A program made the translations under genes and the position numbers. The notes beneath the pieces were generated by a model. The model was not told where the DNA came from and searched no databases. It worked only from the letters and a program-made list of their open reading frames with translations. From the NCBI GenBank assembly GCA_964016885.1, contig CAXHJY010001119.1:1-36513 (forward strand): DNA of 36,513 nt, given 5' to 3'. Below, one piece after another: positions 27,355 through 31,079 of this stretch; within the stretch, counting starts at the first letter, position 1; each line of letters starts with the position of its first letter. The stretch comes from Eledone cirrhosa. Lineage: Eukaryota.

Positions 27355-27700
27355 ATGTAAAAGGTAAACAGAAATACCAACACAATCAGTACAGTATATG
27401 GAAGGGGTATATTAGGTTAACACTTGATATAGCAGGAAGAGGGTCTTAACGTTTCGGACGCTAGTCCTTCATCAGAAGAAAGAATGAGAAATGAGATAGA
27501 TTGAGGGGACGGGTGGGTTGGAATTGGAAAAAATGTCTTTAGATAATAATAACAGGTCCATTCATGTTGAGATCTCTTGGAAAACTGTTGGTGCTGGCGT
27601 TTTGTGTATGATTTGTTTTTTTAGAAAAGTGGATGATGGAGCGCGTCTACCTGAAATGGAAAAGAAAAACATTTTGTAAAAAGAGCTATGCTTGTGCACG
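27355..27700 (-). mobile_element. Penelope-like element 3' remnant (GIY-YIG C-terminus relic plus pLTR)
   Basis: Frameshifted KKQIIHK...TVF/PRDLN (~27566-27625) resembles the PLE endonuclease end E..I..L.T..P.GLN, followed downstream by the hammerhead. Confidence 0.5.
27444..27479 (-). ncRNA. Minimal type I hammerhead ribozyme of a Penelope-like element
   Basis: TCTT-CTGATGA-A-GGAC-TAGC-GTCC-GAAAC-GTT/AAGA; palindromic AACGTT in place of stem III. Confidence 0.75.
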
Positions 27701-27777
27701 TACATAAGTGTGTGTGTGTGTCTGTGTGTTGTTACCCGTCCGTACGAAGCTAAGAAATGTGTGTGTGTGTGTATCAA

Positions 27778-27942
27778 GGTGGCAAATTGGGAGTTATTAG
27801 AATATCGGATAGAATGCCTTATGGTATTTGTTCCTGCTCTCTGTTCTTTGAGTCCAAATCCCGCCGAGGTTAACTTTGTCTTTCATCCTCTCGAGGTCGA
27901 TAAAAAAAAAAAAAAGTACCAGTTTAGTACTGGGGTCGATTC
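27778..27942 (+). mobile_element. SINE family A, diverged
   Basis: GAGTCCAAATCCCGCCGAGGTTAACTTTGTCTTTCATCC...GTCGATAAAA..AGTACCAG. Confidence 0.8.
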
Positions 27943-28146
27943 TTCCTCTCTCTGAAAGAAATCTACTGTACTCTGGTCTGGAAAGGGATGGGCTCCACCA
28001 GGCTTTAAAATACCCAAGAATTGCTGTATGTCAATACGGCGCCGCTACAACTCCATCAGGAGTTACGGGACAATACCATGCTATATATAATATATATATA
28101 TATATTATAATATAAGTATTAATAAAATAGATGTTCTTTTGATCAA

Positions 28147-28207
28147 TTACATTTTATTATACATATTTCGGATGTACAACAGTACGTCCTCATCAGACAA
28201 AATATAA
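28147..28207 (-). ncRNA. Type I hammerhead ribozyme (antisense arm copy)
   Basis: Reverse-complement copy of 28313-28373 with one stem II mismatch. Confidence 0.8.
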
Positions 28208-28312
28208 TGATACATGACATACCCTGAGATGTTAAATGGTTAAGATTTAATCAAGGTAGACTACCTTGATTAAATCTTAACCATTTAACATCTCAGGGTA
28301 TGTCATGTATCA

Positions 28313-28373
28313 TTATATTTTGTCTGATGAGGACGTACTGTTGTACGTCCGAAATATGTATAATAAAATGTAA
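28313..28373 (+). ncRNA. Type I hammerhead ribozyme
   Basis: Stem I TTATATTTTGT/ATAAAATGTAA (11 bp, 2 G.U); CTGATGA; stem II GGACGTAC-TGTT-GTACGTCC; GAAA; short stem III; predicted cleavage after AUA at 28362. Confidence 0.88.
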
Positions 28374-28612
28374 TTGATCAAAAGAACATCTATTTTATTA
28401 ATATTTGTATTTTAATATTAATAACTCCTGAAAATTATTTCCGTTGAGTGCTTCCAATCTACTGCAAAACTCATTCTTTGACATAATCATCGAATATTGT
28501 TTAACAACTTAATACTATATATATATATATATTCCCAGGTTCAATCGGGGGGATAACCACAGGAAGTAAGGTACTCAATACATAGCAGAGTATAAATATT
28601 TAATATAGAAAT

Positions 28613-28665
28613 GGCTTCTACAAGACTAGAACTGTTTCATTCGAAGGAAATCATCAGGAAAACCC
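28613..28665 (-). ncRNA. Type I hammerhead ribozyme in a PLE-like fragment (~28533-28665)
   Basis: GGGTTTTC-CTGATGA-TTTCCTTCGAAT-GAAACAG-TTCTAGTC-TTGTA/GAAGCC. Confidence 0.78.
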
Positions 28666-28814
28666 TATATATATATGTGTGTGTAAATGAAGTAATTCCG
28701 TCGGAAAGGTCCAGGAAAAAAGAGTGCTCTATGTAGGTTACAGAGCTTAATATATATATATATATATATACAATGATATTAAATAAATGGAAACTATATT
28801 TATAAAACCATATT

Positions 28815-28876
28815 TATTCTATTATATATATTTCAAGGGTTCCAAAAATTTTGGTACGCTATCATCAGATAAAATA
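28815..28876 (-). ncRNA. Type I hammerhead ribozyme
   Basis: TATTTTAT-CTGATGA-TAGCGTACCAAAATTTTTGGAACCCTT-GAAATATATATA/ATAGAATA; 8-bp stem I. Confidence 0.75.
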
Positions 28877-29119
28877 CAAAATGTTTTATAAATATTTGAC
28901 ATAACCAAGGATAATATACCTTCATGGTTCAAGTTATCCTGGAAAGTGAAGGGAAGAGAGAAGAAAAGTCAGATATTTAAATATACACATCATTTGCATA
29001 CTCATATTAATAATTTTAAATATCTGACTTTTCTTCTCTGTTCCCTTCACTTTCCAGGATAACTTGAACCATTCAGGTATATTATCCTTGGTTATGTCAA
29101 ATATTTATGAAACATTTTG

Positions 29120-29181
29120 TATTTTATCTGATGATAGCGTACCAAAATGTTTGGTACCCTTGAAATATATATAACAGAAAA
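29120..29181 (+). ncRNA. Type I hammerhead ribozyme (other arm)
   Basis: CTGATGA 29128-29134; GTACCAAA-ATG-TTTGGTAC stem; GAAA 29162-29165; stem I is weakened by mismatches. Confidence 0.7.
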
Positions 29182-29319
29182 AATATGGTTTTATAAATAT
29201 AGTTTCCATTTATTTAATATCAATTGAATACTTACTCCAGAAATCTGTTGAGTGCTTTGAATCAGTTGTAAACATCTCTATTTGTTGGATTTCCAACAAA
29301 TTAAATATCTCTTCTACAT

Positions 29320-29355
<36 letters not shown>

Positions 29356-29441
29356 GTAGGTCCCGGGTTGAGTCGGTGATAACCACAGTAAGTAAGGTAC
29401 TCAATACATGGCAGAGTAAAAATTTTTTATTTTATAGAAGG

Positions 29442-29492
29442 AGCTTCTACAGGACTAGTACTGTTTCATTCAGATGAAATCTTCAGGAAGCT
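29442..29492 (-). ncRNA. Type I hammerhead ribozyme in a PLE-like fragment (~29355-29818)
   Basis: AGCTTC-CTGAAGA-TTTCATCTGAAT-GAAACAG-TACTAGTC-CTGTA/GAAGCT; perfect 6-bp stem I, 4-bp stem III, palindromic ACTAGT loop. Confidence 0.85.
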
Positions 29493-29815
29493 GGGTGTCA
29501 TATTAAGTTCTGGTATTTATACATTTAGGTAGTGGTAAGGGAGGGGTGGTGGCTGGGGGGGGGGGGATTTTGGGGGGTAGGATGGTATTTAGATACACAG
29601 GACCACAACATGGCACAGGCCGTTTTTTCTTGGGGGAGTGGTCAATTAGCCAGAGTGCTTTTTTGAAATAAATAAATAAATAAATGAATAAATAGATAAA
29701 TGAATAAATAAATAAAGAAAATAAATAAAAAAAATAAAAAATAAGTAAAAACCCCAAGATATATAGTAGGGAAATTTTTTTAGGTGGGTTGGTAATAGAA
29801 GATAAACAAGACCGA

Positions 29816-29861
<46 letters not shown>

Positions 29862-29862
<1 letters not shown>

Positions 29863-30032
29863 CAATAAAGATAGACGGTAGCCACGGAATAGGCAGACCT
29901 AGAAAAACATGGGACGAGCTGATAAACTCCGACCTCACACACTTACACCTTTCCAAGACAATGTCACTGGACCGTGACCTTTGGCGGTACTCAGTAACAG
30001 AGAAGACCCGCCTTGCCAGTAGGCATCTCTAA
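29862..30032 (+). pseudogene. RTE-clade LINE ORF C-terminus (5'-truncated)
   Basis: AIKIDGSHGIGRPRKTWDELINSDLTHLHLSKTMSLDRDLWRYSVTEKTRLASRHL*; GRPRKTW and DR..WR are hallmark RTE C-terminal motifs. Confidence 0.88.
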
Positions 30033-30453
30033 CAAAATACACCCCTCCCGCCGCCACCCCCACCCCATCCACACCACCCCGTTCTATGTAAAGTTATGTT
30101 GGTGCCGCGCCATCCAGGCCGAAACAAATGAGATCGTGTAGGTGTCACGACAAAAAAACACACAGTCCACGCTGTAATGTGGCCGTGTAGGCAGCACGGT
30201 AAAAACCTCCCAGACCCACACTGTAAATGTGGTTGGTGTTAGGAAGGGCATCCAACTGTAGAAAACCTGCTAGACAGTCCTATGCGAGCAAGACAATCAC
30301 TCTTGCCTCAAGTGGGACTACCCCCGTCCAAACCCATGCAAGCGTGGAACACGGACGTTAAACGTTGATGATGATGATGATGATGATATATATGCCCATC
30401 TAAACCCATGCTAGCGTGGAAGATAGATGTTAAACGATGATGATGATGATGAT
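30033..30453 (+). mobile_element. RTE 3' UTR with (GAT)n tail, followed by a second short tail copy
   Basis: Continues from the ORF end; GGACGTTAAACG..(GAT)n at ~30352-30388 and a similar tail at ~30425-30453. Confidence 0.8.
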
Positions 30454-30532
30454 AGGTATTAGAGGTTCAAATTGCGTCCGTAGGCGGTATGCCAAGATGA
30501 GAACTCAATGCTCGTGGGGAGCAGAGTATCAA

Positions 30533-30725
30533 TAATAATTGTTTCTACGGTAGGCACAAGGCCAGCAATTACCCAGTGCATTACTGGTACTTTATTTTAT
30601 CGACCCCCGTAAGGATGAAAGGCAAAGTTAACCTTGGCGGGATTTGAACTCAGAATGGCAAGGGCCGTAACTCTATACATCAAAGCATGGCGTCTGACCC
30701 TCTACCGATACTGCCAATTCACCGA
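30533..30725 (-). mobile_element. SINE family A, full length
   Basis: Near reverse complement of 1112-1296; GAGTATCAATAATAAT on both sides (30523, 30725) looks like a target-site duplication. Confidence 0.88.
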
Positions 30726-30795
30726 GTATCAATAATAATAATAATAATTTGTAAGGGAACAAAGAATCAGTGTTGCATCATTTACATATTTAATT

Positions 30796-30887
30796 ACATA
30801 TTACATATGTTTCACTGTCGATCCGCTCAAGGAATGATCGATTAGTTATTGAACCTGACTCTGGAATCAGAAGCTCCTCAGATGTGT
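30796..30887 (-). ncRNA. Type I hammerhead ribozyme with expanded, branched stem II
   Basis: ACACAT-CTGAGGA-GCT[TCTGATTC-CA-GAGTCAGG ... TCGATC..GATCGA]AGT-GAAAC-ATAT-GTA/ATATGT; palindromic ACATATGT stem III. Confidence 0.7.
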
Positions 30888-31079
30888 GTAGAGAGAGAGA
30901 AATGTCTTTGTTAGAGAAGATTTAGTTGTTTTGTTTTTTTAGATCAAACAACTTAAATAAAGGTTTCTGTTGTTAGCTTCTTGCCTCGTTAGTTTCTTGG
31001 CTCGTTAGCTCAATCATTTGATGTCTTGTTGTTTAATTGGTTGCCCAAATGTTAATGGTGCTTTTACTTTTAAATTGTA

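Follow-up and report, generated by a model that had tools for sequence, protein, structure and literature searches.

Hammerhead ribozymes clustered in an Eledone cirrhosa contig are very probably the decaying 3' ends of Penelope-like elements inserted into TA repeats

The hammerhead ribozymes of Penelope-like elements (PLEs), carried in the pseudo long terminal repeats (pseudo-LTRs) of these retroelements, have been reviewed as working as dimers (PMC6765202; PMC7761336), and the elements tend to insert beside one another (PMC6765202). Inverted, 5'-truncated PLE copies with a one-sided tail have been described (PMC8557442; PMC3846280), and self-priming has been proposed (PMC3846280), while a PLE protein studied in vitro nicks and extends both strands, using two start sites on its RNA that bracket the tail and requiring no ribozyme cleavage (PMC11167929). 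The Hydra clade of PLEs is characterized by open reading frames (ORFs) with a CxCX5C linker, CxxC and CxH motifs and no CCHH motif (PMC8557442), and the supplement of the same source records one octopus family of this clade, Hydra-1_Obim, in (TA)n and in few copies. The non-LTR retrozymes of animals are built from tandem units arranged head-to-tail, 150-300 nt long and each containing a hammerhead, and give rise to circular RNA (PMC7761336; bioRxiv 10.64898/2026.07.22.740005). Here we analyze a 36,513-nt stretch of the genome of Eledone cirrhosa (assembly GCA_964016885.1, contig CAXHJY010001119.1, positions 1 to 36,513 of the forward strand), referred to below as the window, in which eight hammerhead motifs crowd between positions 27400 and 30900. 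A first-pass annotation had read this cluster as a hotspot of non-autonomous, retrozyme-like elements. The evidence presented here makes it very probable, instead, that the cluster consists of six ORF-less PLE 3' ends that bear pseudo-LTR hammerheads and were likely inserted into (TA)n through target-primed reverse transcription, and that the ribozymes are for the most part decaying, inherited cargo.

All eight type I hammerhead cores are present where they had been claimed, each combining CUGANGA, stem II, GAAA, a short or palindromic stem III, a UH cleavage site and stem I. The nucleotide C3 of CUGANGA lies at 27475(-), 28196(-), 28324(+), 28657(-), 28868(-), 29128(+), 29486(-) and 30881(-), the coordinates given in the first-pass annotation being those of the lower ends of stem I. 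Hammerhead A (27444..27479, minus strand) is minimal, with 4-bp stems I and II, an ACGU palindrome as stem III and a GUU triplet, and its cut is expected after 27448. B1 (28146..28208, minus) and B2 (28312..28374, plus) both possess a 12-bp stem I, accompanied by an 8-nt palindromic stem III in the former and an 8-bp stem II in the latter, with cuts after 28158 and 28362, respectively. C1 (28613-28663, minus) would be cut after 28619, D1 (28815-28876, minus) after 28823 and C2 (29442-29492, minus) after 29448; D2 (29120-29181, plus) has a damaged stem I and its site at 29173, and E (30796-30887, minus), with its predicted cut at 30802, combines one stem I mismatch with a 60-nt stem II domain. 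The cleavage nucleotides predicted earlier, 28362(+) and 29448(-), agree with this analysis, as does the dimer-type stem III, which is fully self-complementary in families A, B, D and E and forms a 4-bp stem with a palindromic loop in family C. The 60-nt stem II domain of family E (30815-30874, minus) recurs in 17 of 19 other copies (L082-L100).

A structure scanner built on type I hammerhead rules, the stem rules of which were relaxed before the random-sample control described below, called seven of the eight motifs in 27400-30900 and nothing else in the whole 36.5-kb window. The motif at 29128(+) escapes it because of the mismatch in stem I, and under stricter stem rules A, D1, D2 and E are not called. 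Against these seven calls, 1000 dinucleotide shuffles of the region yielded a mean of 0.006 motifs and a maximum of one. None of the 132 matches from an Rfam scan of the window (E<=1) belongs to a hammerhead family, and apart from a tRNA-like match these involved only hairpin-like microRNA models, below their cut-offs. The ninth, decayed copy claimed at 2503(-) does exist, as a family-C relative at 2441..2560 (minus, C3 at 2547), but base pair A15.1-U16.1 at the base of its stem III is broken and the scanner does not call it.

The eight motifs amount to six insertions, since two pairs of them are the arms of palindromes. The inverted repeats around 28196/28324 (family B, 163 nt) and 28868/29128 (family D, 208 nt) are arranged head-to-head with arms 96% complementary, and in each of them one arm stops at a short end while the other adds a tail of ~90-100 nt before (TA)n. 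In the family-B palindrome, the 163-nt inverted arm (28097..28259, minus) ends at the short end without a tail, the ends recurring at the same places across the family; the apex falls on 28260(+), the A of an initiator-like TCACT; and the direct arm (28261..28515, plus) runs through the pseudo-LTR to the short end at 28418 and continues into a tail of about 97 nt. In the family-D palindrome, the inverted arm (28767..28981, minus) carries D1 to the short end, and the direct arm (28982..29315, plus) carries D2 and the tail. The remaining four insertions lie on the minus strand. Family A (27355..27756) is the 5'-truncated 3' end, made up of 3' untranslated region (UTR) and pseudo-LTR, of a PLE that resembles Neptune, and ends in (TA)n at 27304-27356; C1 (28533..28665) is a solo arm that breaks off immediately 5' of stem I; C2 (29355..29818) comprises about 460 nt of 3' UTR, pseudo-LTR and tail; and E (30455..30889) is a pseudo-LTR whose tail is interrupted at about 30534-30724 by another repeat. 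This very high-copy repeat is bracketed by a short AT-rich direct repeat present in two copies. In the D palindrome, the spacer includes, at 28992-28999, the octamer-like sequence ATTTGCAT, which is retained in most of the D copies shown.

A chain of (TA)n tracts spanning 28082..29859 (28082-28114, 28516-28532, 28666-28677, 28750-28769, 29324-29354 and 29819-29859) separates B, C1, D and C2, so that the earlier description of modules bounded by (TA)n holds on both sides for four insertions (the B pair, C1, the D pair and C2), but only at the 3' end for A and not cleanly for E. Targeting of TA microsatellites is nonetheless well sustained: copies of B, C and D are TA-flanked in the window and elsewhere, and E tails end in TA at 9 of the 10 other loci listed. 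Only ORF-less pseudo-LTR ends are found in the window, where the ORFs are repeat read-throughs and no PLE protein remnant was found; the contig as a whole is repeat-rich, with no PLE ORF or convincing host ORF seen. Because the palindrome arms differ by 4%, at some positions that are family-wide markers, an origin as a read chimera is unlikely. Comparison with four contig sets recovered only short, repeat-derived pieces, none spanning the cluster, and contig C1292, considered as a duplicate of the locus, was rejected: it holds other B and D-like palindromes and lacks this cluster.

All five families are dispersed repeats that extend, elsewhere in the genome, into elements bearing PLE ORFs, in keeping with the Penelope-like origin originally proposed. 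First-look searches, the results of which are candidates and not copy numbers, returned 5443 for D, 2802 for A, 2004 for E and 1001 for C; the first 29 nt of the direct B arm have 1461 exact genomic matches, and C2 shows 99% identity in its top 40 genomic hits. The tail of family D runs into the start of a Hydra-type ORF with RWR and DKT motifs at 3 of 24 other loci. Two inverted pairs of B copies, chosen for their 2.7-3.2 kb spacing (L277, L278), both enclose a reverse transcriptase (RT)-endonuclease ORF directed at the direct B copy. Among four C loci fetched, two (L272, L274) have a Hydra-type endonuclease ORF upstream, its end preceding a long microsatellite-rich UTR, a third shares the ORF end and the fourth lacks it. 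Both E loci fetched (L275, L276) share a 940-nt Hydra-type endonuclease end lying between inverted E copies; the ORF of L254 (alignment A1) was set aside as a further link, its membership in family E not having been shown. For family A, two of four loci fetched are linked to an ORF directly and a third has an endonuclease upstream: the window copy is 91% identical to both pseudo-LTRs of L279, which flank an internally deleted ORF, and A continues in L282 into an ORF with DKG, a CxxCxxC linker and a CCHH-type endonuclease.

The motifs in these ORFs point to two PLE groups. The ORFs of B and C display the CxCX5C linker, CxxC and CxH without CCHH, the D piece includes the linker only, and the pieces linked to E combine the linker with matches to Hydra-type proteins. 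RWK-like and DKT N-terminal motifs were observed for D only, the sole N-terminus recovered among B, C, D and E. On these grounds, families B, C, D and E (seven motifs, five insertions) appear tied to Hydra-clade ORFs, which in other genomic copies join RT and a C-terminal endonuclease of GIY-YIG type in a single frame. Family A (one motif, one insertion) appears tied to a Neptune-like ORF, Neptune-type features (DKG, a CX2-5CxxC linker and a CCHH endonuclease) being found in the translations of L282, L279 and L116. Of the about five unrelated families first proposed, the number is right, but their lack of relationship is not: B, C, D and E all link to Hydra-clade ORFs, and the ORFs of B and D are 58% identical across the aligned thumb-endonuclease stretch. 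Stop-free Hydra-type RT-endonuclease frames of ~700 codons, invisible to Pfam, were also seen in 3 of 80 random stretches (L122:2-2182, L171:3028-5172, L148:927-3056), and palindromes with ~600-nt arms that include sequence past the tail or an endonuclease fragment occur at L017/L028 (contig C1 near 272.79 Mb) and L035:3848-5029.

One process could generate this architecture. Target-primed reverse transcription would likely write PLE 3' ends into (TA)n, and each insertion would likely leave TA tracts that attract the next one. If the enzyme nicks both strands of a TA tract, and if DNA synthesis starts at two fixed points of the element RNA, the tail end and the short end, the two products would meet head to head and leave one long and one short arm. 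The palindromes of family B conform to this expectation: 12 of 15 apex palindromes examined by eye have one long and one short arm, one is perhaps short-short and two are unreadable, and these 12 match the two start sites and two-strand extension reported in vitro (PMC11167929). Short-short and long-long palindromes also occur. One apex position is strongly preferred, with 84 B loci at the initiator, 5 at +30 and 6 at the cleavage site; in the larger class the loop sequence is kept on both arms with 0-12 nt between them (<=3 nt in 35 of the 50 listed). In longer B copies the apex A stands within TCACT, 31 nt downstream of a TATA box, and the starts of 9 of 30 B loci fall no more than about 6 nt from it, whereas family-C apexes are scattered over about 40 nt. 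The B products would thus most often meet at a likely transcription start, in which case their template was a short sense RNA uncut by its own ribozyme. These patterns suggest that a short, sense, uncleaved RNA initiated in the pseudo-LTR was a frequent template for family B. A broader proposal, which we advance only tentatively and regard as somewhat less probable than its negation, is that a radiation of the Hydra clade left 200,000-400,000 motifs in the genome, about a third of them in palindromes, the apexes of which record the capped 5' end of uncleaved sense RNA mobilised in trans.

Motifs of this kind are common throughout the genome. In a control made up of eighty 10-kb stretches taken at even steps along 21 large contigs (800 kb), the scanner called 75 motifs against 1.0 expected from shuffles. 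Their distribution is clumped: 45 of the 80 stretches have no motif and one has seven, with a maximum of six in any 3.5 kb, and the mean is 0.94 motifs per 10 kb (bootstrap 0.64-1.26). Extrapolated to 3.0 Gb, this amounts to about 190,000-380,000 motifs, a figure that overlooks damaged copies and may include a few false singletons. Of the 75 motifs, 26 form 13 head-to-head pairs and none are paired tail-to-tail, and a TA or CA repeat lies within 300 nt downstream of 68 of them, as against 30% of random places. Beside 105 family copies, motifs of other families reach 1.83 per 10 kb, compared to the genome mean of 0.94. The 75 random hammerheads (L121-L200) fall into 26 types of stem III and cleavage site, 57 of them being fully self-complementary, and the genome hence harbors many more hammerhead families than the five of the window. 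With such a background, and with six motifs reached in 3.5 kb by a random sample, the notion of a hotspot is not borne out; the cluster is the upper tail of a clumped, genome-wide distribution and not a unique locus.

Conservation and folding speak to what these ribozymes can do. In a set of 13 related B/D-like subfamily representatives, taken from scanner hits and leaving out A, C and E, the core is kept and 14 of 20 named stem pairs show changes on both sides. The covariation score was reached by none of 500 shuffles, slid controls drop to 30-55% paired, and a mismatch at the fourth stem II position is conserved among the 13. Because the rows are related and were chosen from scanner hits, this covariation is support that leans towards structure, not proof of it. 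For family C, an inactive alternative in which a stem II strand pairs with GAAA was considered and is disfavored, the hammerhead fold being preferred because the 4-nt loop varies among C subfamilies while the 3-bp stem is fixed. In dimer folding, the active conformation comes out best for B1 and B2 only; the active dimer lies 4 kcal/mol above the best dimer fold for C2, 7 kcal/mol for D1 and 11-18 kcal/mol for A (12.6 kcal/mol), C1, D2 and E. Copies elsewhere that are typical of D and E fold better than D2 and E, and the window copies hold stem-breaking changes absent in typical family copies. The folding results imply that the parent elements likely encode working, dimer-type hammerhead ribozymes, whereas about half of the copies in the window (A, C1, D2 and E, with weak active folds) are probably impaired. 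Folding predicts that RNA reading through either palindrome would close into a hairpin (-245 to -327 kcal/mol) and leave only 0-6% of the ribozyme segment unpaired, so that B1, B2, D1 and D2 would be trapped in long double-stranded structures. B2 and D2, the ribozymes on the plus strand, each come after their own antisense arm, which makes self-cleavage on that strand unlikely, and C2 emerges from the models as the best free candidate for cleavage in minus-strand read-through RNA. It is accordingly doubtful that every transcript running across the region, whichever its direction, could self-cleave, with the plus-strand ribozymes predicted to be fully paired and four of the eight copies weak in their active folds. 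The ribozymes would then be cargo inherited from parent RNAs in which they were built to work as dimers, here mostly decaying.

Several observations weigh against this interpretation or favor other ones. The seven scanner calls of the window exceed every random sample (maximum 6 in 3.5 kb, n=80), folding energies leave out tertiary contacts and proteins, and a PLE hammerhead was protein-assisted in vitro (PMC11167929). Pfam recognized no Hydra-type ORF among the eight proteins searched, its only signal being a weak GIY-YIG match, below cut-off, in one protein whose ORF is unlinked to the five families; the clade calls consequently rest on motifs. The link for family E crosses unrelated insertions, different in L275 and L276, between the ORF and the direct pseudo-LTR. 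At the B apex, the three search patterns differ in length, that for the cleavage site being the longest and strictest, and a cap-derived G is clear in only 3 of the 50 apexes listed and ambiguous in 7. Moreover, exactly the junction that snap-back at a native 7-bp hairpin in this position would produce is found at 36 loci, and the apex hotspot is therefore not due to the start site alone. These loci favor a mechanism in which the same elements became palindromic when a single complementary DNA folded back and primed itself, as proposed in PMC3846280, the B apex then being set by the native hairpin instead of by a transcription start. Subfamily or private variants shared between the arms of about 10 of 15 apex palindromes (by eye) agree with this mechanism, as they would with a single source, and so does the D apex in the window, with its 33-nt spacer and short AT microhomology. 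Snap-back does not, however, predict the loop sequence kept on both arms in the larger, 84-locus class, and the arms differ at a two-base subfamily marker both in the window B palindrome and in L239. Fold-back is a partial and less likely alternative.

The remaining readings concern the nature of the cluster itself. That it is a hotspot of non-autonomous, retrozyme-like elements, with ribozymes cutting any crossing transcript, would suit modules that are short, ORF-less and high-copy, B-type palindromes for which a short RNA, copied in trans, may be the source, active folds of B1, B2 and C2 that are favorable in isolation and a local density above all 80 random samples. Yet the region lacks the head-to-tail ribozyme array that defines animal retrozymes, C1 and C2 being 829 nt apart and 84-89% alike with other elements between them, and each module, in all five families, lines up collinearly with the 3' end of an ORF-bearing element. 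The predicted sequestration of four ribozymes by the palindrome arms, together with the gap of 11-18 kcal/mol for A, C1, D2 and E, further renders this reading improbable. Long, TA-flanked inverted repeats could also denote DNA foldback transposons or miniature inverted-repeat transposable elements carrying hammerheads by chance, but the apex varies between copies, the 3' arm ends are unequal, solo arms are common and the arms continue into reverse-transcriptase elements, leaving this origin very hard to credit. Just as implausible is a cluster selected by the host as a transcription terminator or RNA-processing cassette: the same excess over random samples could be invoked for it, but the contig is repeat-rich and shows no convincing host ORF, the stem-breaking changes in the window copies are absent from typical ones, and clustering beside other copies is genome-wide. 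Decaying PLE 3' ends, mostly in TA tracts, remain the reading that best accounts for the locus.

Other features of the window stand apart from the cluster. A near-perfect 40-bp hairpin at 11583-11671 adjoins a TA tract and yields no hammerhead call. Two satellites are present: a 48-bp satellite at 18482-24743, with about 129 copies, 96% matches and stop-free frames of ~2100 codons on both strands that are probably a by-product of the unit sequence, and a GC-rich satellite at 8423-10233 with 50/41-nt subunits (periods 50, 91 and 141), stop-free in three plus-strand frames. The tRNA-like match, at 26545-26612(-), scores 29.8 bits, just over the Rfam cut-off, and is possibly the head of a short interspersed repeat.

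The literature searched gave no report of a load near one hammerhead per 10 kb, although the supplements of bioRxiv 10.64898/2026.07.22.740005 may list invertebrate counts; a squid genome paper lists 235 Rfam hammerheads, and the main text of an octopus repeat annotation does not mention ribozymes. Rfam and Pfam overlook these elements, and the thousands of young palindromes they have left constitute a data set on PLE priming, RNA start and the role of the ribozyme in transposition. Should the apexes record capped sense RNA, the question of a sense versus an antisense template for PLEs would be settled, and should a Hydra-clade radiation with RNA mobilised in trans be confirmed, its insertions would be a large source of long double-stranded RNA silencing their own ribozymes.

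By its motifs, the cluster is ordinary debris of a known class, the pseudo-LTR hammerheads of PLEs, and its components have close counterparts among described systems. Families B to E share with the Hydra clade, as described in PMC8557442, insertion into (TA)n, an inverted 5'-truncated copy and a one-sided tail, a canonical 3'-end hammerhead, in which a U often follows A9 and another precedes G12, and a CxCX5C linker with no CCHH, joined in family D by RWK-like and DKT motifs. They differ from that description in 3' UTRs of 1-2 kb, in tails that measure about 70-100 nt, against 30-40 there, and in the 60-nt stem II domain of family E, and from Hydra-1_Obim in their number, at least four families, each with about 1000-5000 exact matches or first-look candidates (PMC8557442). 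Family A recalls the Neptune type in the extra base after A9, the short stem I and the ACGU palindrome of its hammerhead, and in a linked ORF with DKG, a CxxCxxC linker and a CCHH-type endonuclease, the clade being assigned by motif (PMC4209133; PMC8557442); its GUU cleavage triplet departs from the type described in PMC4209133. The head-to-head pseudo-LTRs, the optional tail on one arm and the TATA box with a TCACT initiator are also those of the inverted-pLTR Penelope of Adineta vaga, for which self-priming on an antisense template is favored (PMC3846280), while the B apex points to sense RNA, even if a snap-back class exists. The Poseidon element PAc of Anolis, in a different clade, likewise combines two RT start sites that define the tail, extension of both strands, AT-rich targets and an uncleaved RNA substrate, with start sites inside the ORF where those of family D precede the start codon (PMC11167929). 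The non-LTR retrozymes of animals, finally, are also short, non-coding, PLE-related and equipped with type I hammerheads (PMC7761336; bioRxiv 10.64898/2026.07.22.740005), but as described in PMC7761336 they are organized in head-to-tail tandem units that this region lacks, and the families of the Eledone cluster have ORF-bearing parents.

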